A stretch of DNA of 63,157 nucleotides, the filler included, from Hausera hauseri (Eukaryota), in NCBI GenBank assembly GCA_046269625.1. It is 10 parts of 10 records of this genome, joined end to end, with 100 filler letters (N's around TTAATTAATTAA, not from the genome) between each part and the next. Parts side by side here need not be neighbours in the genome. Positions count along the whole stretch, not along the records: positions 52,624 to 57,390 come from JBJURY010443357.1; 9 more parts are not named here. One strand, written 5' to 3'. The notes under the pieces are model-generated. The model did no database searches. It saw only the letters and a list, made by a program, of their open reading frames with translations, and had not been told where the DNA came from. Made by a program: the position numbers and the translations under genes. Shown here piece after piece: positions 13,985 through 59,425 of the stretch; the first letter of the stretch is position 1, and every line of letters begins with the position of its first letter.

Positions 13985-14275
13985 TCAGTTAAATAAATAC
14001 TCAATCCAAAGACTTTTGAACCACATGGTACATTCTATTCCGTCTGGCGAAATCAATTCACGTCGTTGATATAGTACGTAGCTTTGCTCTTTTGTTTCCA
14101 ATTTATTAGGTCTAGCGTCTTCACACGTTTCTAAATCCATCAACGAGTATTTTTGTCCACGTTTAAATTTGTCACAGTCGAATACTGTGATAGCTGCCAT
14201 TTGTTTTATCAACATCATCAGGGTTAGAAAGTTTATTAACCAACTTGGTTCGTTTCCTCGGTTACTATCTGTCAA
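13985..14275 (-). pseudogene. Truncated N-terminus of an envelope-like glycoprotein (chuvirus/gB-like pattern)
   Basis: Signal-like WLINFLTLMMLIKQMAA then ITVFDC-x7-YSLMDLETC...VLYQ...EC. Confidence 0.55.
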
Positions 14276-15250
14276 ATTTCGTACCAGGTCTTCGAGTCTG
14301 TTAGTTCTACTGCTAGAGGATTGTATCTTTTGGTATTCTTCTTCCTTTTCACATAGTTTAGCCCAGTTTATTTCTCAAGGTAACTTTCTGGCTGCTTTCG
14401 TGCTAGGCTAGTAGCTATGTTAATTTCATTTTCTCGCGTTGGATTTTCTCAATAACTGTTTCATCTGTTAAGGTGTTTTAGATAATCTGGAATGCGACTT
14501 CCTCATCATTCTGACGGCATTATATATAACTTTTTTTTTCTAATTTAATACATCGCCACGGAGACTAGAGTAATTTTCGATACATATTAAATTCTTCATG
14601 AGTTCGGTTAATTCTTCGTTATTCGCGTTGAAAGTAGGTATCGACATTTCCCTTAATTCTCTAATCAAGTCTCCATTATAGTCTGTTTCTTCTAGTATTT
14701 TCTTTCGTCTACCAATTGGACGTTTCTGCCTTACTGTTATCGGTACGACTTCGCTTGGTGGTACTAAACTTTTATCGTATTGTTCCTTGTCATCATCTGT
14801 TTGCACGTATTCGCAATACATTATCGCGTCTTGGACTCCTATAATTCGCCCTACATACTGATCGGTTTTAGCATTTCGTGTGGCTTCTTCTTTTGTCTCC
14901 TCATCAGCTACTATCGCCAATATACGACTTATTTCGTATGGGATAATCCTAACGTCTATTGTTTTAATTCATCTAATATTCAGCCTCGAATATAAAGTCT
15001 ATAATCAGGTTCTAAATTCACGTCTACTACGTTTGAAGTTTTTGGTTCATCCACTTTATCTACTACTTTATTAACTATGGGAACATTCTTCTTCCACGCC
15101 ATGTCGGTCCGTTTTGGTGAAGCTATTGAGTGCTTATATTCATTTTCTGGTTCATGTAGTCTATGATAAACTTCTAGTAGTCGTAACTTATGCTCAAATT
15201 CATTTCTAGTCATTAGAACTTTCGGATTATTACTATCAGCTTGACCTTTT
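14276..15250 (-). pseudogene. Broken ORF of unknown function between gag and env-like region
   Basis: Consecutive minus-strand ORF pieces 14980..15213 and 14540..14920 plus in-frame sequence leading into the env signal; no RT or integrase motifs. Confidence 0.5.
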
Positions 15251-17490: not shown

Positions 17491-20400
17491 GTTATAGTTT
17501 ATACAGATCATCAGGCATTAGAAAAACTTGATTGTAAAAACAAACGTATCTATAATCGAATACAACGTTGGAAGATGGAACTATTAAATTACAATCCGAA
17601 ATTTAAATACGTACCAGGAAAACTTCACAGTGATGCAGATGCTATATCGAGAACCATATATCCTGAGATCAATTCGGCAGCATTTACTCCGATAGAAGAA
17701 CATGAATTTACTACAATGATGACAGAATTTGCAAATCTTAATACAGATAAATTAGCAACCGTTCAAGATGACGATCCTTTGCTCTATGTTGTGAAAAAAT
17801 ATGTACACACTTCCGAAATGCCTAATATTGACAAACGTTTAACGGAATGGCTAATAGACCATAAAAGTAAATTGATTATTGATAGAAATATACTGAAATA
17901 TATCTACAATGATAGAGCTTTAATTGTTATACCTAGTTCATTGATAAAATCAGTCTTACTTCAAGAACATGATTCTCACCTAGCTGGTCACCCATCGTTG
18001 GGCAAAACCATAAAACGTATTAAACTTAAATACTTTTGGCCAAATCAAACAGAGGATATTGTTAATTGGGTCAAATCTTGTAAGATTTGTGCAACCCGAA
18101 GGGATAGGGGAAGATGTATAAGACCAACGCTGGGAACACTTCCAGAGCCCAAAGCACCTATGGAAATATGTGCTATGGATATTTCAGGACCTTATCCGAC
18201 ATCTGAATCAGGCTATAAATATATACTGAGTTTTATCGATTATTACACAAGTTACATTATACTAATCCCATTAAAAACTATGACTACAGAAGCAATAGCA
18301 ATGGAATTGTTTAACAAATTAATATGCATATTCGGATCACCTAGATTAATATTAACTGATAGAGCTCCATATTTTACGAGTCAACTGTTTAATGAAGTTT
18401 CAAAAGTACTTCAAACTAGACATGTATTAACCACAGCTTACCATCCACAGTGTAATGGTAAAGTAGAACGATCTAATAGAACTGTGCAGGGAATTTTATC
18501 TGTACAAGTCTCTGCAGATCAGAAAAATTGGTCAGATAAATTGCCAACTGTAGCTTTCGCCATGGATACCACACCGACGAGAAGTACAAATAAAACACCA
18601 TATGAATTGATGTTTGGAAGACTTCCTTTATTACCATTAGACATTGAACTACTACCAACAGCTTTACCATTTACGGGTAACCAACAAGAAGAAAACTACA
18701 TGGTTTTACTGAAACAACTAAGTGATTATGGAGAACAATCGAGAGCAGTTAGAGAAGAGTACAAAAAATCCTACACTAAACATTATAATAAAAAGGCTCA
18801 AGCAAATCCTTATAAAAAAGGAGATTTCATCATGATACACTATCCAGTGACAGCCAAAGGAAAATCCCTAAAGCTGACACGCACTGGCAAAGGTCCTTAT
18901 AAAGTTGTGGAAGTTAGACCACAAACTCTATTTATTGAAAAATCTCCAGGAAAAATAGAGAATGTTTCTATACAGAATGTAACTAGAGCTCCAAAATCGT
19001 ATACAGGAAAATTCGGTCTTACATCACCAAATTTGCTTTCCACTAATTTGTTAACAATGATTTGCATTCTCATTATTTTGTTATCTTGTACTCATGCGAG
19101 TTATGGTCAATTTAATATTCCTTATAAATCTATGGTACAACTAGTTGAGCAGAATCAAAACCATACAGCTAGCGACGAGATATTTAACAAGGAAATACAA
19201 GTGCTCGGACCAGATTTTGAAAGGGGCTGTATAAAGTTCAAAAAGAGACGTACCAGCAATATTGTGCGAATAGTGATTTTCTATAAAGAAAAATTGGCGT
19301 TTACAGATTTGGATAACGAGAATAACTTAACATGTCTTTTAGTAATTAGAGATCAACTATTTTCCTTGCTTGCACTAATTTTCAAGAGTAATAAAGAGAA
19401 TAAGTGGGACCTGCATCTAACCGTCAAATCTAGCATAAAATGTCTAATACCTTTCAAAATTAATGAATGTATCTACGACATCGCTTTTATGACTGAGCAA
19501 AATAGATGCAATATACCCTATAAAGAGTATAGAAAGATGGCGAAGTATAATGATTTAGAGATTACCGAAAATTTATTTGTACTGATTTACCCTAAACCAG
19601 ATCGAATAGTATTCGCTCGGAATTATCAATCAAATATTAAGAATACACAAGTTAGTATCGCTTGTATAAATCAGCATCATCAACAACGAATTATCCTCGA
19701 AAGGAATCAAAAATGTGCCCATTGTGTAAAGTTAAGCTCGGACACTGATTACTTAATAGTGATAAAAACCTGTACTCATTATTCAGAAATGCATGTTAGA
19801 ACCTTACCCAGAGTAAATAAAATAATCAAGTTTAATTATAATAAAAAAGACTCTAAGACTGATTCACAAACTTTGAAACCAGAAATCGACAATATCGAAT
19901 CAAGCATTGCCGTGTGTGCTTTTTTAATCATCATGTTAAGTATAGCTTTGTTGTTTGTGTTGGCTATAGGCACTTTAATTATTCCAAAAATAGTTCGACA
20001 TAGTCATACTGACACTATCACGTGTCACTGCCCACTAATCTCAAGATGGCGGTCACAGACTAGTCATCCGCACGAGCATTTATCGCACACACTACATGCG
20101 CCCCCACAAATAGCTACATTATTAGCATGTTCATTGGTTGTATGTTGTATACACACCAACAAAGGTGAGTATTTAAACGAATTTTATTTATTTTCAGCTC
20201 TCTACAAATTCAATTTCAGTATGAAACGTCAAAATCCGAAAATGACAAAAAATGATTCACAAATCCAGTCTAGCTTATTGTATTCCAAGATGAATCCTCA
20301 ATATCATGCAGATCAAATGGACTCACAAACCTTAATTCAGAATTATGGAAATAAAAAAGGAAGCCTCAATAAGACTATGTCAAAAACTTTTTACAACAAC

Positions 20401-22206
20401 ATCAGGAGGCAAATGATAAAAATGGACCATTTCGTAGCTTTAAGCGTGGTTCGAATCCCGAATCAACTAAAGCACGAAATTACTGTGAACAGAAATCTCG
20501 GAATCTATTTGATCCAGGAAGCTCAGCAGTTGGAATTGAGAAGATATATGTCTAAGACTGACATGATAGACGGACTAGTGATCCATGTCGCCAGAGGTAT
20601 GATCAGCTTAAAAACAAGGAACGAACAACATTATTCGGATTCAACAGTCTGCAGAATCTGTGAAGAAGAAACTTTATTTATTAATACTCCCATGAGTATT
20701 GATTTAATCCAAGCCAGACCCATGTATGTACCACTCGTTATAATGTTGGAATGGCTTCTTCCCGAAAAACATTTATATTTACCCAGACCTATGATCTTGG
20801 CTCATAACCCTCCAGAAATGGTGAAACAATCCAGATTGAATTTTATTAATACTAATCAAAGTAATACAATCAGAATATTAGCAGTTTCTGTCGGGTACAT
20901 GCAAGATAATTGCCCCTTACCTATTCATGTCATTATCGCCAATAAAAAAGGGACTATATTATATGAAGCTATAATAGCTAACAGGAAGAAGGTACATAAT
21001 GTTAATTCAGTAAGACACGGCATATTACCTGAGTACATCGCTCATCAGGGACAAGACATATTTGACGTTACTAGAGAAATGATTAATTGGTTATTCGGTG
21101 TAGTGGTAGTTGGATTAGAGACCCATAAAATGTTAGAGGCTTTTGACATACCATTGAATTATTTTGCAGGAATAATAGATTTATTAAAACATGAAGAGAT
21201 TACTGGACATACTTTCCAACAGCTGACGCTAATAAATATCAGTAATCTTCTAAAATTACCCGGATCAAGAAACAGCCAAGGATATGCCCAAGATAACCAC
21301 GGTAAATTAAGCCTTACCATGGATGTTTTTCATTTAGTGTCCAATCCCTTCCAGGTAGCATGGGTGCCACCGGAACCATTTAACAACGTAATAGATCCCG
21401 GAGAACTGTTTTACAACAGGGAAAAATATCTGGCAGATTTTGCCTGGATCCATCATGTAACAGGAGGACCAATACAGGACACAGATGCCATTGTAGACGA
21501 AATTATAGACGAGTTAAAGACACCATCAGTATCGGATATTTCAGATATGGTCGCAGAAGAAGAAGGGAAACTACAAAGAGAAGATCAAATTCTCGCAACT
21601 AAAGATACGTCTGAAGGAAATTGGGGTAACTGGAATTACAACCCGGGTAGCAAGAATTCAATAGCTATTCAAACGGAAGAAAATGACTTTAATATGTTCA
21701 CCAAAAGAATAATACAAGGACTAACGAAATTTGATATCTTTACATTTCCATATGGAATCATTATTTACACGAGAAACTTTAGCTTTCCCGTAGTAATTGA
21801 TTCTATCGAGACACCGACATATATTGATCAAACAATTCCTCAAATCACGTTACAGTCATGGGATAATAGTAATAACGTACTTATTGGATTTATATACGAA
21901 CGATCAACAGACATAAAAATGCTTTTCATATACGAGGAATACGAAAGATTGTACAAGTTACCGATACGCTTGGATGCAGACTTTCATATCAAACTCCCAA
22001 TACAGTTAAAAAATAATGTGGCGATGACGAAGCTTAAGAACGAACATAAAGGAGGAAAATTGATTTATATCCTATTAATCAAACACCAAAGACCCATTAT
22101 GATACCAATAGAACGAGTACCACAAGGAAAGAAGCCAGATCCGGAGTTAACGCTGACATACAGAATTGAAAAGGAAATCAGACAAGAAGTTGACCTAGAC
22201 TATTAA
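17491..22206 (+). CDS. 5'-partial uninterrupted Gypsy polyprotein: RNase H end, integrase, internal signal, Cys-rich ectodomain, TM helix, unknown domain, degenerate DEDDh exonuclease-like fold, unknown C-terminal domain
   Basis: Open from contig start (VIVYTDHQAL...RIQRW...DADAISR); HHCC (HDSHLAGH...CKIC); DDE (MDISGPY, LTDRAPYF, NGKVERSNRT); GPYKVVEV; then ~1050 more codons without a stop. Confidence 0.92.
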   Translation, partial: VIVYTDHQALEKLDCKNKRIYNRIQRWKMELLNYNPKFKYVPGKLHSDADAISRTIYPEINSAAFTPIEEHEFTTMMTEFANLNTDKLATVQDDDPLLYVVKKYVHTSEMPNIDKRLTEWLIDHKSKLIIDRNILKYIYNDRALIVIPSSLIKSVLLQEHDSHLAGHPSLGKTIKRIKLKYFWPNQTEDIVNWVKSCKICATRRDRGRCIRPTLGTLPEPKAPMEICAMDISGPYPTSESGYKYILSFIDYYTSYIILIPLKTMTTEAIAMELFNKLICIFGSPRLILTDRAPYFTSQLFNEVSKVLQTRHVLTTAYHPQCNGKVERSNRTVQGILSVQVSADQKNWSDKLPTVAFAMDTTPTRSTNKTPYELMFGRLPLLPLDIELLPTALPFTGNQQEENYMVLLKQLSDYGEQSRAVREEYKKSYTKHYNKKAQANPYKKGDFIMIHYPVTAKGKSLKLTRTGKGPYKVVEVRPQTLFIEKSPGKIENVSIQNVTRAPKSYTGKFGLTSPNLLSTNLLTMICILIILLSCTHASYGQFNIPYKSMVQLVEQNQNHTASDEIFNKEIQVLGPDFERGCIKFKKRRTSNIVRIVIFYKEKLAFTDLDNENNLTCLLVIRDQLFSLLALIFKSNKENKWDLHLTVKSSIKCLIPFKINECIYDIAFMTEQNRCNIPYKEYRKMAKYNDLEITENLFVLIYPKPDRIVFARNYQSNIKNTQVSIACINQHHQQRIILERNQKCAHCVKLSSDTDYLIVIKTCTHYSEMHVRTLPRVNKIIKFNYNKKDSKTDSQTLKPEIDNIESSIAVCAFLIIMLSIALLFVLAIGTLIIPKIVRHSHTDTITCHCPLISRWRSQTSHPHEHLSHTLHAPPQIATLLACSLVVCCIHTNKGEYLNEFYLFSALYKFNFSMKRQNPKMTKNDSQIQSSLLYSKMNPQYHADQMDSQTLIQNYGNKKGSLNKTMSKTFYNNIRRQMIKMDHFVALSVVRIPNQLKHEITVNRNLGIYLIQEAQQLELRRYMSKTDMIDGLVIHVARGMISLKTRNEQHYSDSTVCRICEEETLFINTPMSIDLIQARPMYVPLVIMLEWLLPEKHLYLPRPMILAHNPPEMVKQSRLNFINTNQSNTIRILAVSVGYMQDNCPLPIHVIIANKKGTILYEAIIANRKKVHNVNSVRHGILPEYIAHQGQDIFDVTREMINWLFGVVVVGLETHKMLEAFDIPLNYFAGIIDLLKHEEITGHTFQQLTLINISNLLKLPGSRNSQGYAQDNHGKLSLTMDVFHLVSNPFQVAWVPPEPFNNVIDPGELFYNREKYLADFAWIHHVTGGPIQDTDAIVDEIIDELKTPSVSDISDMVAEEEGKLQREDQILATKDTSEGNWGNWNYNPGSKNSIAIQTEENDFNMFTKRIIQGLTKFDIFTFPYGIIIYTRNFSFPVVIDSIETPTYIDQTIPQITLQSWDNSNNVLIGFIYERSTDIKMLFIYEEYERLYKLPIRLDADFHIKLPIQLKNNVAMTKLKNEHKGGKLIYILLIKHQRPIMIPIERVPQGKKPDPELTLTYRIEKEIRQEVDLDY

Positions 22207-29029: not shown

Positions 29030-29830
29030 TGGAAAATTTGAGACATGAAAAGATACAAACATGAAAACTTGCCGGCAAGAACGTTGTCGACGTGGGAGTT
29101 ATCGACATGAGAAGTATCCGACATGACAAAGTCACTGACATGAAAAAAATTAAAACATAAACGTTGTCGACATAACAAAACTGTCAACATAAAGGTTGTC
29201 GACGTGAAAAAAAGCCTAACATGAAAACTTGAGACGTGCAACCAAAGTCGCCGACATGAAAGTTGACGACCCGAAAGTTGTCGACATGAACGTTGTGTAA
29301 ATCAAGGATGTCGACGTGAAAACTTATCAATGTGAAAACTTGAGACTCGGAACGTTGCTGATATGAAAAAATACTGACATTCCAAAGTCACTACACAAAA
29401 GTTGTCAACACTAATGTTGTCGACATTAAGGTTGTCGACGTGTAAAGTCACCAACATGAAAAGACTCCAACATGACAAAGTCGCCGACATGAAAGTTGAT
29501 GACACAAAAGGCGTCGCCTCAAACGTTGTCGACATAAACGTTTTCAACTTGAAAGTTGTTGACATGAACGTTATCAACAAGAAAGTCGCCAACATGAAAC
29601 GTCACCAACATGACAAAACCGCCGATGTGAACGTTTTCGACCCCAATGTTGTCGTCACGACCATTGTCGACATGACCATTGTCGACATGAAAGATGTCGA
29701 CATGAAAATTTGCCGATGTGAAAAAATCCTAACATGAAACCTTGAGATGTGGAACGTCACCGATATGAAAATTTACTGACATGCCAAAGTCGCCCCCATG
29801 AAGGTTAATGACACGAAAACTGCTGACACG
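29030..29830. repeat. Degenerate 15-bp tandem array centred on GTCGAC
   Basis: Consensus ~AAAGTTGTCGACATG; larger blocks recur near 29208, 29330 and 29720. Confidence 0.85.
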
Positions 29831-30515
29831 TGCTCCCAAAAGCATACATAAGCATGATGAACACGAATTAAACCACCGCCAGCACCCTTAAGAAATCCGA
29901 CCTTAACAGAAAATACCCACCTTACATGACTCAACATGCCCCTAAACATGATGAAGACGAACTAAACCACCACCAGCACCCTTAAGACACGCGACCTTAA
30001 AAAAATATCCCCCTTCCATAACCAGACTTGCTTCAAAAGACATGTTCAAGCATGATGAAGACGACCTAAACCACCACCAGCACCCTTAAGAAAATCAACT
30101 TTAACAGAAAATATCCCCCTTACATGACTCGACTTGCTCCCAAAGACGTGCTCAAGTATGATGAAGACGACCTAAACCACCGCCAGCACCCATAAGAAAC
30201 CCAACTTTAACAGAAAATATCCCCCTTACATGAATCGACTTGCTCCCAAAGACATGCTCAAGTATGATGAAGACGAACTAAAACACCGCCAGCACCCTTA
30301 AGAAACCCGACCTTAACAGAAAATATCCCCCTTACATGACTCATCTTGCTCCCAAAAGACATGCTCAAGTATGATGAAGACGAACTAAACCACCGCAGCA
30401 CCCGTAAGAAGCCCGACCTTAACAGAAAATATCCCTCTTGCATGACTCGACATGACCCTAATCATGATGAAGACGACCGAACCACCGCCAGCACCCTTAA
30501 GAAACCCGATTTTAA
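29830..30515. repeat. Tandem array of ~93-107-bp units, ~7 copies
   Basis: ATGATGAAGACGAACTAAACCACCGCCAGCACCCTTAAGAAACCCGACCTTAACAGAAAATATCCCC recurs; unit starts at 30048, 30154, 30260, 30367. Confidence 0.9.
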
Positions 30516-30899
30516 CACGTTCCGTACCCATAACTGCCCATAACGTGAAAGCGTAGTCATGCATTGACCCCTAGCAACGGCCTTGGACGTGCTAGATAGT
30601 GATGTTTTTAGAGCATCATGTGTATTGTTATTTGTTGTTATTTTTTATTAAAACTTATTAAAATAGTGAACTAATATAATAAAATATTTAATTTTACATT
30701 TGAAAGCAAAAAAATTGCGCTTTTGTAATTTAAATTAAATTAAAACACGATGTGTCCGAGATTTGTCTCTTCCGGGCACTCTTCGAAAAATGGCTTGATG
30801 TACGCTTCATAATGACAGTGCATTTCGAACTAAATTGTGTTGTGATTCTTAATCTAATTGCCTTAGTGATTAGGGATATAAATTAAATTATGATTATAT

Positions 30900-44233: not shown

Positions 44234-45650
44234 CGGGAAAAATGCAAGGAATTCTGAAATCATACGCTATTCGTTACAATGATAAATTCCAACCTGTCAT
44301 TATCACTGAGAAAACCGGTGTTGCTTCTTCTAACAAAACCATTTTAAAATTATCACCGCACCGACAACACACATTCTATAGATCAATGTCTAACGAGATC
44401 AAAGAAGGGTCCAAAGATCCGTATTCCTATACTATTGAGCGGGATAACCCGAATGCGCCAACGTATATTCATGAAGATAAACTTCCAACATCAACGTTTA
44501 AAGTTTCGTGGACATCGGCGTCAGATGAATTTGGTCATATTAACAGCTACTTTTTGGAAATCGGTGAAGTTAACTCTAATTCCCAGCCGACTATATATCA
44601 TATTGGTACACTTGAACGTCAATTCCCCATTAAAAATCTAATGGCTCGCACTTCTTACATCGTTTATTTGGCATCGGTAAATTCAATTGGTAAGAGCAAA
44701 CCTATTCCAACTACAGTCAGAACAGACAGAGAAGAACAGACAGCACCGAAAATTGTCAATAACTACATCAACGGCGAGTCAGTTCGATTGACTTGGGAAA
44801 ATCTGTTTGTCGGCAATGAAACTGCAGAGTACACGTACCGCACTTGTTGCCAACGAGGATTGCACAATTAGGAATGCATTGATACTTTACCGACTTTGGA
44901 AAATAGTCAATGTCACTGGCGATTTGATGCTAAAGTTTATTGGGTGGAATCACGTAAAAAACAACTGGAACGCTTCGTCGGTTTACGTATGGATTAGACT
45001 ATCTGTCCCTAGTGAATTATGTAATAATCCTCCAAATTGTCCGCGATTAAAATTGTCTTCTTCGAAACATATGCTTAATTTTACATACTATCATCCACCA
45101 ATTCCCGTTTTGAATATTGTTGAACATATTCTTAGTTGTCGAGCTGACTGTGGAGCGGGATTTCAAACAGAGTCTGAGGCTGTCGAAAATTCTGATCTCA
45201 AAAAATGGTTAATTACACATGCAAAACTAAAGGAAAATCAATTGAAAAACCACTACACAAATATTTTTTCTTATGATCATAGTAAAGTTATTTTGCAAAA
45301 TTCGTTCAGCGGGAAATCCGATAATATAAATACTAGTTTCATTGACGGTTATAAGCGCACAAATCCATACATGGTCACTCAGGGACCGTTGAAAGATACG
45401 ATTCCGGATTTCTGGCAAATGGTTCGGGAGCAGAATTGTGACATCATCTCAATGATATCGAATTTCTATGAACGAGGTCGTTCTAAGCGCGAAGAATATT
45501 TGTCTACTAATGAAACGCTTTATGGAAACATAAGCGTTCGACTGGTTTACGACACTAAGAGAGCCTTTTTTACGGAACGTCGATTTAAAATTCGAAATAT
45601 GCGAAATTTTTTTAAACTCCAACACGTACGATGGCAGTTCTTTTGTGTAA
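44234..45650 (+). pseudogene. Fragmented receptor-type protein tyrosine phosphatase (FN3 pieces plus N-half of PTP domain)
   Basis: FN3: KVSW...YFLE...IKNLMARTSYIVYLASVNSIG; PTP: NHYTNIFSYDHSKVIL, INTSFIDGY, TQGPLKDTIPDFWQMV; no TM and no HCSAG. Confidence 0.8.
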
Positions 45651-46289
45651 TCGACACTGATGACGTAATTCAAATAATTATGATTAGCATGTCGAATTTT
45701 ATTACGTATTCATCGAATTCCCTTAATACCAATGCTTTATTTATTTTGAGTTATTTGAAATGTCCCGATTGTAGTAGTTTGACGGAAGAAAAGTTATGTT
45801 CGAAACTCCCACAGATGTTTACTAAACAGGGTGATACGTTTTCGTATTTTACCAAACGCAGCAGTTGGTTGGGAGAATTCCATGTTAATATTATTACTGA
45901 AAACCCGTCCAGTTTCTCCATGCTTTATTTTCCCAACGGATTTGAACGGAACTTTTACGAATTAGTTTCTATTATATTAAAGGGTGCAAATCATATTATT
46001 TTATATTTACAAATGATAATGAACAGTATCAAATCAATGTTTGTTGTTACTGAAGAAGAACCATATATGAATGTTTGTTAGTTGCAATAATGTTAATCAA
46101 TCTTATCATTTCATCATTTACACGAACTGTAGAGAGAGGTGGTATTACAGTGACTCACATCTGATTAGTTAATTGAAACAATTAACAATGTAGGGCTCAA
46201 TATAGCTTTCGACATTCGTTTCCTTGTCTTTTCGGCACAAATAACATCAGGCATTAATAAGATAAATCGAAACTTTTGAAATTAATAAA

Positions 46290-52623: not shown

Positions 52624-55463
52624 CTATCAACGTTTGTTCTCATTATATTAATTGGGATTTTTCGGTTAGTTGCCAAAAACTGTTATTGCAAACGTCCCAA
52701 AACCACAGAATTGGAATTAAGGGAATTGGAAACCGCTGTTGACCCATGTGATAAAATAATCTGGCAACTACTGAGTGGGTTATTCTATTATCAAACAAAT
52801 AATTGGTTTTATTTCATGTCCGTGCTTTGCTGTAAGATTAACCCTTACTGTTTATTTTTTAGATTGATGAGTAAGACTTCGAGAACAGAAACCGGACAAT
52901 GTAGAATCGACGGATCGCAATCAACCAAAGAACACCGAGTTCCTCCGAAAACGTGCTACCGTATATATCCCGAATTCAAAATTGATCTTCAAATAAATAA
53001 GCGACGAACTACATGAGAAGACATACGTAGAATACAACCAGATAAGTGAAATCCCTAATAACTTAAAAAGGCATAATGGAAGAAACTCGTTTCGTGTATC
53101 TGTATCCAATGTGGGAGAACAAAGATAATAGAGCGTACGCCTTAAAACAAATGATTAAATACGAACCTATTCATCAGCAGAGCATTTATATACACCTAGC
53201 GGATGGTGAGATATATTATCGGATAAAAGATCAGGCATGGAATGCCAATAGTTGAAGACAGTACAGATTTAGTACCTTTTTCTATGTAGTGGAGATCTGT
53301 CATTACGACTTAGAATTTCAAGTAGCCACACTCACTGTAAAAATGATGTTTGAAGTAACTTATGAAGATTATCCTTATGTCCAGTTACCGTCCTGGAAAT
53401 TTTACCAACAACCGTCAGAAATATCAAAACTGTCGTCCAGATTAGTACCCGATGCCCGAAACACAAGGATAATAGCAGTTAGTTGTGGAGAAGGAAGCGA
53501 TGCGCAAGAAATTTCGATTGAAGTTTCAGTCCTTGAAACGAGCGAAACAAAAATATACTGCAAAACTATTAACCCTAGAAAACGCGTGCGCGAAACGTAT
53601 TGTGATGCAACAGGAATCCGTAAAGAGACCCTTGCGAGAGAAGATATTAAGCATGTCCAAGCCGAATGAGAACATTGTTTATACAGATGCATCGTCGCTG
53701 GATATCGCGTCCACAAAATTGTTGAATTATTGAAATAATTCCGCTCAAGTATCGTAGGAATACGAGGCATAGGGACACACGTCGTGGTCGCGAAGCAAAC
53801 AAAATCGACGTTGCGAGAAAGAAATTATCCTATGCCAAAAATTACGGATGAATATTTCAAGTTAATGATCGATGCCATGAATAGTAAACATGTCAAGATT
53901 AGTAAACTATTAACTTCAAGCCAAAGAACACAATACTTGCATGATATTTACGTGACTTTAAAATTGGACCATGAATGAATCCCCACAAACCCAGAACAGA
54001 ACATAAGAAGCTCCACTAGTCCAGAAAAAACGAGTAAAAAACAGCGAAAACACTACCGAACTTACTCCATGCATATAACTCTTGAACCCGTCAGTCACGA
54101 TAATATTCGAATAACCGTTTCAAGTATTTGCCAGACTGCAGAAAATAAACCTACTACTATCTATGGATTGAGTTCTACCTCGGACAAAAATCAAGCCAAG
54201 CTGACAGCAAACCCACCATTCAGCCCTGAAAAGAAATGCAAAGAGGAAACGATCTCCACTCATTTCAAATTACGAGTAACCCCAAAGAAATATTCTAAAA
54301 AAGCACAAGGAAAAAATGCCCCGAAATGACAGAAAATGAAAATTCCGGCATTTACCCCAAAAAGAAAACTGGCTCTTTACGAATGTTTTTAAAAGGAAGG
54401 CCAAGAGCACAGAAGACAAAAAGGAAATATCAAAATATATGCAGGAATCACTCAAAATGTAAGTTCCATAGAAAATTGAAGAATCCGAAACTCCCAAAAA
54501 GGAAATCTGACCTATACCCCTACAAAAAGTAGATGTACGGAAAACAGAACCGATCCGAAGAAAAGTCAAAACTGAAGCTCACAAAAGAAATTCAGGAGAC
54601 GAATTTATGCAAGTGTTTACAGAAGTGAATATTTTTCGAAGAAATCAATCTAACGAGAATGTCCATTACGCCATCCAGGATGATTATTCCATAATGCTGG
54701 TTATGGCCGAGTATTGTAGCCACTAGCAGATCAAGGAAGCTGTATTTCACGTCAAAAAGTTAGAATCACGCAAAGTTATGGAAGACTCGTATATATGGGA
54801 AAACCTGAAAGCAGGAAAATACCTCGCCGCGATATTTTAATCGAAAAGGACTGGAAAGTTATCATTATTAGTAGATTAGCAAATCAAGGTACTATTAAAG
54901 AAACAATATGAAGCCTAACAGAAAGGAAAACATGTCCCAGGTTGGGATAAGAATACCATAGTGGACTGGACTTTTGTACCAGTAAACTACGATCGCCGTA
55001 GAAGATCTAGAGATCCAAAATAAAAGTCAATTCATGGCTGCCTTTACCAAGACCAGGACGGATTGGTATTTGAACCTATACAGGTCATTCTAGAGTCGAT
55101 TTGGACCGAGAAGATACAGATGAAGAAGAGGACCACTGTCCCGTCTGCAGAGAAATCATCACCCAAGGATTCGTTAAGTTAAACAACAAGGAATGTAGAC
55201 ATAAATATTGTCGAGCTTGTCTGGAAACCTGGATTTTAGATAATGGAAAAACTACATGTCCAGTATGTCATGCAAAGGCCGTCGAACTTAGGTACTATTC
55301 GGATGGTACTCATAATCGAACCATGTGCATTAAACCCTCAACTAGCTATGTACTAGAACCTACGGACGACATGGAGAATGAAGCGGGCCTTAAGCGTCGC
55401 CTTAACCGCCTCAGGCGACCAAACAATGGTGTCACATCTCTTGACGCAATAGTCACATCCTAG
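52624..55463 (+). pseudogene. Decayed accessory region of a Gypsy element homologous to 19900..21400: TM helix, unknown domain, DEDDh-like fold, Lys-rich linker, C3HC4 RING
   Basis: LSTFVLIILIGIF TM; EIPNNLK; IYIHLADG; TRIIAVSCG...INPRKRV...TGI; RING CPVC-x15-CRH-x2-CRAC-x13-CPVC at 55137..55268. Confidence 0.75.
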
Positions 55464-55485
55464 GATGCCGCTCAGTGAGGACAAA

Positions 55486-56248
55486 TGTTGCAGAATTGTA
55501 TAAATTATTATTGAACGAAATGTAACATGAGAAATTAAAAAATTGTATATAATTAGAGGATAGGATTTAGAATAATTTGCCATATTCTTGAAAATTTTAG
55601 AAGCATTTTCCGAATTTCTACGAATTTAAATAAAAAATTCGGGATTAAATTGTACCTATAATTCATGGGATATATATATAGAAATTGAGTAGTAATCGAA
55701 AACAATTATTGCTAAACCGGATACTCACTTAGGTGCTCAGCTATATAAACAGATCGCGTTAATCAGTGGTTGGTTGTTAGTGTGCGACTGAAATAGAAAT
55801 TAGCGACACTAGAGTTGCTTAGCAGTTGATATTAGTCATTAGTAGTTAGCTGTTCAGTTGATAGTTGAAACAGAATTTAGTGGAGAAATTATCCGATTGC
55901 GAAGATAACCGATAATGAATTGACATTGATCAGTGATTTAAAGTACGGGTTGTATTTATTGTATTAATAAATTATTTAAATTTCTAAAGTTTCCCACTGC
56001 CTCTTAAAGGTAGTTAAACGTCATTAAGGATTAAAATTACTCAAAATACATAGGTAAGTCGAGAATTTAATAATTGATTGCACATGACCGCAAGTGAGTA
56101 CCCGCATTAGTATTCATAAAATTTATATAAGGCACAATCTGTCTAGACGAAAACGTTTAGACATTACCTGACGTATAGTAAATATAATTTCAAATGTCAC
56201 TATTGTTATATAGTGGGAGTTGTATAAGGGCCACCCAAATATATAACA
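55486..56248 (+). repeat. Candidate 3' LTR
   Basis: GAGGACAAA then TGTTG; TATATAA ~55742; AATAAA ~55966; ends TATAACA; last ~200 bp homologous to the LTR end at 16873..17060. Confidence 0.7.
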
Positions 56249-57061
56249 AACGTATTATGCTGATCTGCCTAAAGCATATCTATACACATTCCATTAAAAG
56301 TGCCAAGTAAACTGATACGCAAATGAAAATCAAATACAATCCCCACGTTTAATCGATCTACCTAAGCTATCATTAGCAGATAAACACGAAAACTCGGATG
56401 TTATCTATGAAATAATTACATCCCGATTAACCTATAAATCATAACAGACGGTACGCATCTGCCTTTTACATACCGCACCAATATAAAGGCAATAGCTTGC
56501 GTAATCGTTTCACCGTTCTCGCATTTTTGGTTGTACAAACACAATACGAGAAATTACTCAATGACAATTTCAATAGCCTAAGTTTCCTTTATACCCACCA
56601 TGCTACTCATCACTTTCTATCGATACGATTAAATTTGTATTTCATAGCTCAAAGCAATCAAATAAGAAAATCAATATATTACAACATACATCGATTGCGA
56701 CAACACAAAAAATTTAGTTTGAGTTATTACCAAAACTTCTAATGGAAACTTTCCCATTGTATTATCAAAATTGAATACGGCGATGTTCCACAGTGGTATG
56801 CAAATAGGAAAATTTGGAGCCTAATCTAACTTCGAATATAATCTAAGAATGTACTATGTCTATGACACAATCTAATGAAAAACATAAAAATACATCTTTC
56901 GATAATTTAGACTCAGATAATTAGAATTTTATATCCTTCGGATGTCATAGCTATGTCAGAAATTACTCCTGATTGCATACAGGTATATATTCACGAATAT
57001 AACAAAACAAAAGTATAGTACCAGTTTATTCAAAACTCATTAATCCACGAGCTGTCCTTCG

Positions 57062-57390: not shown

Positions 57391-57490
57391 NNNNNNNNNN
57401 NNNNNNNNNNNNNNNNNNNNNNNNNNNNNNNNNNTTAATTAATTAANNNNNNNNNNNNNNNNNNNNNNNNNNNNNNNNNNNNNNNNNNNN
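57391..57490. other. Artificial contig linker
   Basis: 44 N + TTAATTAATTAA + 44 N. Confidence 0.98.
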
Positions 57491-57885
57491 GTTTTCGAAC
57501 AGGTTCCATTGATGCCCACAAACTCGGATCGAGAATGTGGATAAAAGAAAAAGGACCAGTTGTGGAAAACTATATCTGGTTTATTGAATCATATCGTGAT
57601 CCCCTCAGTGTTCGTGGAGAATTCGAAGCGTTCATTGCCGTCGTCAATAAAGAAATGTTGGAGAAATTCAACAAACTCGTCGCATCGGCTCCAACCATTC
57701 TTAAAGTACTGCCTTGGCCGAAAGAATACGAAAAGAACAAATTTCTTCAACTCAAATTCACATCACTGGATACTATCAATTTCACCAACAGCGGCATGCC
57801 GGTTGTAATTAACATTCTGAATTTCAACGATATTCAACAAAATGAAGGGTTTAATAACGTTTCGTTAGGTAACGTTCTGAAATCA
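57491..57885 (+). pseudogene. DPP3: Dipeptidyl peptidase 3 fragment, intronless and decayed
   Basis: [27 protein letters not shown]...RGEFE...LPWP..YEK..FL...FTSLD...[11 protein letters not shown]; ends before the HEXXGH site. Confidence 0.88.
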
Positions 57886-57889
57886 TGAT

Positions 57890-59425
57890 TTCATGTTAGA
57901 CGAAATTCCGTGCTCGCTATTTTTACAATGTATAGAAATTTTAATTTTCTCATTCACGATGCTCCTAAAAAAATTACAAATTTCTTGAACAAGAACAAGA
58001 TGCATCATACAAACGAAATGCTTTTATGGTGCTACTTAATGCAAGTCATGAAATGGCATTGGAATATTTGTCAACGAGTCTCGATCAAGTACACATGTTT
58101 GGTGATATTTTACAGTTGATTATTGTTGAACCGATTTACAAAGTCTCCCATTCAAATCCAGAAGAACGGAGAAGGTTCATTCGTTATGTGTACAATCTTC
58201 TACAATCCAGCATTCCGTCGGTTAGATATGAAGCTGCTGGTACACTAATTACGTTAACAAATGCTGTCACTGCAATTAAATCGGTCGCTACTTGTCATAT
58301 TGATTTAATTTTAAAGGAAAGTGACAATAACGTTAAGTTAATTGTACTAGACTGTTTAATAGGACTTCGAGAAAACCACGAAGAAGATCTTCGATGTCTT
58401 GTTATGGATATTTTACGAATTTTCGGCGCTTCTGATTTGGAAGCTCGGAAGAAAACCTTGCAATTAGGATTGAATCTAATGACAAATCGAACTGCGGAAG
58501 ATTTTATAAACATTCTTTTCATAGAAATCGTTAAAATGTGCAGCAGTGATAATAAGTATAACAGCATTGATAAGAAATCTTATTGATATTATCTCGTAAA
58601 TACGATTTATTTGGCTTGTATTCATTGTTCGGATATGATCCCATCAGTGGTACCGACATTGTGTGAACTGCTGATATATGAGAATGAACAACAAGAAAAC
58701 AGTGGTTCCGATGAAGTCTGAAAATTTCTTCGTGAAGCTACTCTAAAATATCCGCAATATGAAACGTTGATGTTGAAAAAATTAATGGAATTCTGCCCGA
58801 ACATGCGTTGTTGAAGTGTCTTACTGCACATCATATGTATTTTAGGGGGATTTTATACATCTGTAGAACAAATTGAAAATTTCGTTAATCTCATTTATCA
58901 AGTGTTGGGACCCGTTCCAATTGTCAAAGAAGTCAGACGAATTAGTGGGGAAAACGTTGAAGCATCGGCATTACTGGCTGCCGAGGGCGGTTTGTCATCA
59001 AGCAGTCAAGAACGAAAAGTAACTACCGGCGAATGCAACTTTGTTGTTCTAAACGACATTGACATTGTCATTCTCGAATACATTATTCCAGCAACGTGCT
59101 GCAGAAGTCTGTATCGAAAAATGTGGAACGAATTTGAATGGGAGAACAAAGTAACAGTGAACACGAAAATCAGGGATCTCAATGTATGCTTGAGGCATAT
59201 CACAAGCATTACGAGTATGCGTTGTTTAACATCTCCAGAATCCCTGAAGGGTGAATGTGATTATCTTTGTGTTACATTGTACGAAAAAGCATTTTCGGTG
59301 AAAATGTACTGGCAAATGTTTGTTTGGTGAAACCACCCGGCAAAGAGCCGGTGACAGGATACGTTCGAATTCGAGCAAAGAGCCAAGGAATAGCCGTAAC
59401 GATGGGTGAGAAAAACTGCTCTTGA
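57890..59425 (+). pseudogene. COPB1: Coatomer subunit beta, intronless pseudogene with large internal deletion
   Basis: [35 protein letters not shown], then jump to MWNEFEWENKVTVNT and [11 protein letters not shown]; frameshifts and stops. Confidence 0.9.

Follow-up and report, generated by a model that had tools for sequence, protein, structure and literature searches.

A predicted pseudo-nuclease fused to a C3HC4 RING finger in the last reading frame of a decayed, likely Gypsy-type LTR retrotransposon of Hausera hauseri

The ways in which LTR retrotransposons of animals resist host silencing are poorly known, and their extra open reading frames (ORFs) are mostly unassigned. The Juno and Vesta LTR retrotransposons of bdelloid rotifers carry, after pol, an ORF3 that encodes a DEDDy exonuclease with a DEDD to DEED change, according to the available part of the published account (PMC5408684). 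Burro elements, which are giant Gypsy elements of planarians, carry MATH/TRAF, BIR, SUMO-like and AIR1 motifs, and meddling with host ubiquitination has been suggested for them in the accessible sections of PMC6431247; Burro is also named in the accessible portion of PMC13238120. PML (TRIM19) combines an RBCC region with a DEDDh fold, inactive in amniotes, and restricts L1 (PMC10123124, in excerpt). Maelstrom and EXD1 are inactive DEDD derivatives that bind RNA (PMC5408684 and PMC7968707, both in excerpt, the latter covering viral ExoN together with Maelstrom). DEDD exonucleases and ubiquitin-related cargo are each already known in LTR elements, and their fusion was not found in print: the titles and abstract openings screened name no DEDDh-RING fusion and no ORF combining AlkB-like and DEDDh domains in LTR elements, while the original Burro paper, its supplements and repeat databases may hold annotation.

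The window, the whole stretch of DNA analysed here, comprises 63,157 nucleotides in which ten contigs are joined by spacers, and its content is eukaryotic retroelement DNA. The cargo copy with the RING finger lies on contig 9 (52624-57390) and its sister element on contig 3 (17491-23574). What contig 9 preserves of its element, a multi-copy LTR retrotransposon that is likely of Gypsy type, is a decayed 3' end, the Gypsy label being taken from relatives; gag and pol are absent from the contig, and the 5' part of the element lies outside it. The features of both are as follows.

52624..52692, plus strand: end of a transmembrane (TM) segment, inside which the contig starts (hydropathy 1.93 at 52633; very high summed contig depth in run X1)
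52693..52849, plus strand: basic, Cys-rich tail after the TM segment (open frame 52626-53013)
52850..52869, plus strand: putative splice acceptor (T-rich tract, AG at 52861-52862) and ATG at 52867, read from the sequence
52937..53465, plus strand: predicted AlkB-like double-stranded beta-helix without conserved metal ligands (matches P0004, an intact relative, from residue 60)
53466..53975, plus strand: ISG20/REX4-like DEDDh fold without catalytic residues, with in-frame stops inside (profiles and model)
53979..54570, plus strand: Lys-rich low-complexity linker (14-20% Lys; low pLDDT in the P0004 model)
54571..55083, plus strand: conserved pre-RING region (block 54472-55083 is 34% identical to P0004 523-732)
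55137..55268, plus strand: C3HC4 RING finger with an acidic stretch before it (Pfam PF00097 above cut-off; 31/44 identical to P0004)
55269..55463, plus strand: C-terminal tail and stop (aligns to the P0004 end)
55470..55485, plus strand: degenerate polypurine-tract position (directly before TGTTG; depth peak 55453-55506 in run X1)
55486..56248, plus strand: putative 3' LTR of 763 bases, TGTT...AACA (termini, TATA-like and AATAAA motifs)
17491..22206, plus strand: sister element on contig 3 (open frame of 1571 aa, continuous across the putative splice acceptor)

The cargo of contig 9 is not intact. Three blocks upstream of the RING contain 12 stops in 677 codons and the cargo has at least three frame changes; the N-terminal domain is interrupted by one near 53068-53082, and the nuclease and RING blocks come into a common frame only through cancelling shifts. 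No stop occurs in the 122 codons of the RING block, an outcome that the upstream stop rate would give about once in nine by chance. The cargo region of contig 9 is a pseudogene, and the full protein cannot be made from this copy. The T-rich tract, AG and ATG that had been claimed as a putative acceptor with its Met are present in the sequence, and the tract of contig 3 is similar; P0005 has a Phe-rich stretch where contig 9 has the putative acceptor tract, but no Met there. Intact copies may be expressed from a spliced subgenomic RNA. The Lys-rich linker is likewise as first described.

An intact relative shows the arrangement that contig 9 has lost. A profile of the two cargo copies, run against 1.84 billion proteins, matched 36 of them with E no higher than 0.001, and the best match, P0004, is a natural protein of 870 aa, encoded on one 16 kb contig, that contains the entire architecture in a single ORF with the C3HC4 RING at residues 747-790. 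P0004 is colinear with 52937-55490 over four blocks (57, 34, 34 and 48% identity), and the nuclease-domain tree places it and contig 9 as sisters (support 100/99). The RING is thus in frame with the exonuclease-like domain in this relative. Word-index searches returned no relatives of the contig-3 cargo, none of the RING ORF in longer proteins and, for P0004, only itself, and none of three scans of viral contigs gave a match. In the cargo, the nuclease fold and the RING lie about 340 residues apart, and because of this distance the two need not act together.

The RING core is 70% identical between contig 9 and P0004, compared with about 34% in the two long upstream blocks, and on this alignment the RING is the best-conserved part of a colinear single ORF and therefore not a separate insertion. 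Diverged copies were found in run X1, possibly the very sample from which the window comes; in this run 1216 contigs match 52624-57000 at 80% identity or more. A contig covering 54945-55266 shows 48 differences over about 320 bases, and another covering 55240-55504 shows 52, so that copies diverged by 12-20% link the RING on one side with the upstream domain and on the other with the start of the LTR. Pieces so diverged are other copies of the element. Summed depth in run X1, which is not a copy number, is 23-294 across 53062-55397 (260 on the RING bin) and 2-6 in the flank after 56274. A RING confined to a single copy, or one brought in by a separate insertion, is therefore not what is found: the shared ORF and RING identity of P0004, together with the bridging copies, effectively exclude the latter. 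The anatomy of the cargo, that is, its domain order and its fusion to the RING, is held with high confidence.

The RING itself follows the pattern C-x2-C-x15-C-x-H-x2-C-x2-C-x12-C-x2-C at 55137-55268, with all eight ligands and the helix Trp present, and scores 33.6 bits against a cut-off of 21 for Pfam zf-C3HC4. The Trp and Pro positions are both present, and a six-frame search gives the pattern a single time in the window and in 0/100 of its shuffles. The C3HC4 RING with its typical Trp therefore stands as originally read, as do its place before the LTR, with 217 bases between it and the LTR-like repeat, and its absence from contig 3, which was seen in both Pfam and pattern searches. The 25 differences listed at 55095-55460, among 40 of 108 rows listed, fall 14 on third, 9 on second and 2 on first codon positions, a weak count in which the decay of contig 9 and divergence are mixed. 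Against the PDB, an equine herpesvirus RING is a weak match (E 0.0017), and the cellular RINGs of RING1B, RNF4 and TRIM5 score higher. Herpesvirus ICP0 is a viral RING E3 ligase; the likeness to RING proteins of this type lies in a C3HC4 RING carried by a mobile genome, and the difference is that there is no similarity outside the RING.

From what is known of the RING family, E3 activity of the RING protein is predicted and is considered likely. The residue after the last RING Cys is Arg in P0004 and His in contig 9, and the Arg occupies what we take to be the E2-activating "linchpin" position. Some RING domains have no E3 activity, and the copy on contig 9 is a pseudogene without the linchpin Arg, both of which would suit a RING that is a non-ligase module for zinc binding or oligomerisation, a neutral passenger or a separate insertion. 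This alternative is nevertheless very improbable, given that P0004 has the RING in the same ORF at 70% identity and that copies in run X1 bridge it on both sides.

Behind the cargo, TGTTG starts at 55486 and AACA ends at 56248, and LTR-type TG...CA ends after the purine-tract position are present, the purine tract being degenerate and poor; contig 9 has no second LTR and no target-site duplication. In run X1, 58 loose ends, with an agreement of only 0.39, begin behind 56248 and support this boundary, and depth then falls to about 5. The last 45 bases of the putative LTR (56204-56248) hold a short inverted repeat of very high depth. At 52624-52915 and 55453-55506 summed depth in this run exceeds that of the intervening cargo 10- to 100-fold, as though the TM and LTR-adjacent parts were common to many more elements that carried other cargo.

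A single structure model, that of P0004, is the source of the two folds predicted upstream of the RING. It is confident at about residues 55-205 and 235-415, and the linker, pre-RING domain and RING are all at pLDDT below 50; a single-sequence model of the contig-3 cargo reached pLDDT 31. The pre-RING domain (54571-55083) has no Pfam match, and the P0004 model is not confident there. The first domain, modelled as part of P0004 (residues 49-207), matches Ofd2 with Z 10.3 and an rmsd of 4.0 over 141 aligned residues, followed by two further 2OG-Fe(II) oxygenases, ALKBH6 (Z 9.6) and ALKBH1 (Z 9.5); in Foldseek, cupins match as well, as do entries for viral replicases or oxygenases. At the sequence level the domain is without a significant match in PDB or Pfam, and a comparison of profiles puts its relation to E. 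coli AlkB at 0.1% probability. Alignment A4, with 14 domains, contains one invariant His, no conserved HxD/E and no HxD/E...H metal triad, and an active AlkB dioxygenase was rejected. Because sequence support and a conserved HxD...H triad are both missing, the label double-stranded beta-helix (DSBH) is used rather than AlkB; the domain is modelled as a DSBH fold and is probably not an enzyme.

The second domain of the P0004 model matches ISG20 with Z 18.3 and an rmsd of 2.1 over 158 aligned residues. Profile A1 matches SDN1 (E 0.0098), and a family profile of 19 rows matches ISG20L2 (E 5e-22), ISG20 and SDN1. The middle domain is thus like ISG20, ISG20L2, REX4 and SDN1 in fold and sequence profile, and differs in that the contig 9 lineage is without catalytic residues. 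The positions of the catalytic D, E, D, H and D read A, S, I, L and R in contig 9, A, S, M, Q and K in contig 3, and A, N, M, L and C in P0004, with the last two columns (H and D) aligning less surely. Of the DEDDh-like domain proposed in the preliminary description, the ISG20/REX4-like fold is upheld and the catalytic residues are not there, and an active exonuclease was rejected for this lineage. On the model, the nuclease domain of contig 9 is an ISG20/REX4-like DEDDh fold that is predicted to be catalytically dead.

The loss extends through much of the family. The 36 profile matches were divided into 21 treated as family members, 8 cellular REX4-like proteins that formed the outgroup, 2 multi-repeat proteins kept out of the trees and 5 others left aside. 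Nine of 23 family rows keep D-E-(E/D)-H-D, and 14, including contig 9, contig 3 and P0004, are without the first catalytic Asp. The dead forms group together in a first tree (support 88/89); once the catalytic columns, five in all, and six rows that were long or partial are removed, they split, their grouping being found in 0% of bootstrap trees, and a single clade of dead forms is not rejected in this reduced tree (p-AU 0.32). Juno and Vesta are alike in having an extra ORF after pol with a DEDD-fold nuclease, and 8 of the 9 active members of the contig 9 family also read D-E-E-H-D; in the available part of PMC5408684, however, their nucleases are RNase D-like DEDDy enzymes with intact active sites, whereas in the contig 9 family the nuclease is an ISG20/REX4-like DEDDh, many members are dead, a DSBH domain is added at the N-terminus and contig 9 has the RING fusion.

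Dead folds of this kind have host counterparts. PML resembles the cargo as a RING-containing protein with a DEDDh fold that is without catalysis in amniotes and that acts on retrotransposons; in the excerpted text of PMC10123124 it is a host restriction factor, TREX/Plex9-related, with an N-terminal RING in its RBCC region. The contig 9 cargo, in contrast, is element-encoded, ISG20/REX4-like and of reverse domain order, and the likeness is an analogy rather than homology of the fusion. Maelstrom, EXD1 and Exuperantia share a DEDD fold without the DEDD motif. They differ in being host proteins, with a structural match much weaker than that of ISG20 (Exuperantia matches the P0004 model at Z 10.4), and the accessible parts of the published accounts report no RING in them. 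The RNA binding kept by the dead DEDD folds of Maelstrom and EXD1, and the joining of a RING to a dead DEDDh fold in amniote PML, count for the reading preferred here, in which the dead nuclease fold would grip RNA.

The reading tentatively preferred, for which confidence stops short of probable, is that of an E3 ligase whose dead folds bring host factors to the RING. In intact copies the cargo protein would likely act as a ubiquitin ligase, its dead N-terminal folds would grip RNA or RNA-protein complexes, and host factors for silencing or sensing, once bound, would be directed to degradation by the RING. Counted against this are the His, not Arg, after the last RING Cys in contig 9 and the AlkB-like call from structure alone. 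The 14 rows without the first catalytic Asp, which are mostly RING-less, would suit a decoy, in which the dead nuclease stands in for a host nuclease of REX4/ISG20 type, sequestering the partners or substrates of the latter, and the RING acts independently in an unrelated pathway, such as apoptosis or innate signalling, through the adjoining domain. The RING does adjoin its own conserved domain beyond a long linker, but the fusion is kept in two copies that are only 34% identical upstream, and such a decoy is judged unlikely.

Contig 3 shows how the cargo sits in its element. Region 53094-53801 aligns to residues 1005-1241 of the contig-3 ORF (about 236 residues) with a score of 104, against a maximum of 63 in 200 shuffles, which bears out the sister relation that had been proposed; tblastx alone missed it. 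The contig-3 frame runs in the order RNase H end, integrase (best PDB match Ty3), signal-like segment, ectodomain, TM segment (complete at residues 806-824), two-domain cargo and a different tail. The claim that contig 9 has the same order is sustained for the cargo by the alignment, and in part for the TM segment, of which contig 9 shows the end, cut by the contig start. The contig-3 ectodomain has no viral fusogen match in Pfam. Its Atlas matches are all under 0.9, with several fibronectin-III proteins among them, and with these weak fibronectin-III-like matches it may be a receptor mimic rather than a fusogen.

The nuclease ORF follows a type I membrane protein gene in contig 9, contig 3, L005 and L012 (in the last after two short ORFs, the membrane protein being a signal-plus-TM protein), and the contig 3 cargo is in one frame with pol. 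Both points suit a role in the element's own life cycle, in which the pseudo-nuclease would bind element RNA or reverse transcription intermediates and the RING would ubiquitinate Gag, the membrane protein or itself for particle sorting or turnover; auxiliary replication roles have been proposed for the rotifer DEDDy ORF3s in the available part of PMC5408684. Most members are without a RING, however, and the TRAF and IAP-type RING genes of relatives point at host signalling, so that this role is considered doubtful. At L005:3-1679, a retroviral-type protease is fused to a membrane protein with two hydrophobic segments, without reverse transcriptase, directly before the nuclease ORF.

The RING is rare in the family. 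Scanning metagenomes with the nine active members yielded 19 loci, none of whose nuclease ORFs contains a RING, and among the database proteins of the family, several of which are fragments, the RING is present in 1/21; it is therefore not needed by the family. The modular nature that had been proposed for the cargo agrees with this distribution and with a tail that varies, and the core of the family can be described as an accessory gene of two domains, placed at the 3' end of complex LTR elements, to which exchangeable tails are attached. In L016 the nuclease ORF is followed by a 1.6 kb LTR-like TG...CA stretch, a primer site, presumably of tRNA-Lys type, and gag. In L014 and L017 the ORF is followed, after about 100 bases, by a purine tract and TGTTG, a strict pattern found in 2 of 16 loci examined, L016 not among them. 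L015 carries RING-H2, IAP-type RING and TRAF genes, all separate, just upstream of an active DEDDh ORF, which argues that elements of this family keep ubiquitin-system genes, and L018 has a TRAF gene beside the nuclease ORF. The stretch L015:1-6727 has these in one row: two RING-H2 frames, one of which is partial, a single RING of IAP type, a complete TRAF and a pair of coiled-coil-like ORFs.

Burro is alike in being a Gypsy element with ubiquitin and apoptosis cargo in accessory ORFs that are separate or within the polyprotein, and the TRAF genes of L015 and L018, with the RING genes of L015, add circumstantially to the likeness. The giant Burro polyprotein has MATH, BIR, BCL2 and env parts between gag and pol. 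Burro differs in that its cargo lies in or upstream of the gag-pol polyprotein, whereas the contig 9 cargo is the last ORF before the 3' LTR, and the cargo described in the accessible sections of PMC6431247 includes no DEDDh domain and no nuclease-RING fusion. The proposal that two Gypsy groups in the window had borrowed ubiquitin-system parts survives as far as borrowing by Gypsy elements goes, which the same sections of PMC6431247 already describe for Burro, and was not confirmed for the supposed family with a ubiquitin-like domain in Gag, for which the gag-region frames scanned gave no ubiquitin-like Pfam match.

A more far-reaching form of the preferred reading is rather unlikely. In it, the captured AlkB-like and ISG20-like module would be an RNA-guided substrate receptor for its own E3, destroying small-RNA silencing or RNA-sensing proteins as a transposon-encoded mirror image of PML, within an undescribed accessory family that passed from active nuclease to dead nuclease to RING fusion. 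Within related elements the family offers a series open to testing, from active through dead nuclease to dead nuclease with RING, and an intact natural protein is available. Should a silencing factor prove to be degraded by the RING fusion, the fusion would be the equivalent, encoded by a transposon, of viral E3 antagonists; should this not be so, the Burro and rotifer cargo lists are still extended by a new fold pair.

Other parts of the window contain further coding remains. On contig 2 (12867-17390, minus strand), a Gag related to the L016 gag (E 4e-7) is followed by a weak match to a Monjiviricetes fusion protein at 13988-14374 (E 0.0035, below cut-off), several zinc knuckles and a protease-like frame; this env-like piece 5' of pol is reminiscent of Burro. 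Coding pieces for fibronectin-III with tyrosine-phosphatase and for coatomer-beta (44236-46078 and 57439-59330) immediately precede copies of a second Gypsy family (contigs 4, 6, 8 and 10), and are either retrocopies or captured cargo. The end of contig 9 (57024-57390) is a GAT-rich microsatellite, and contig 5 holds tandem arrays at 29069-30517.
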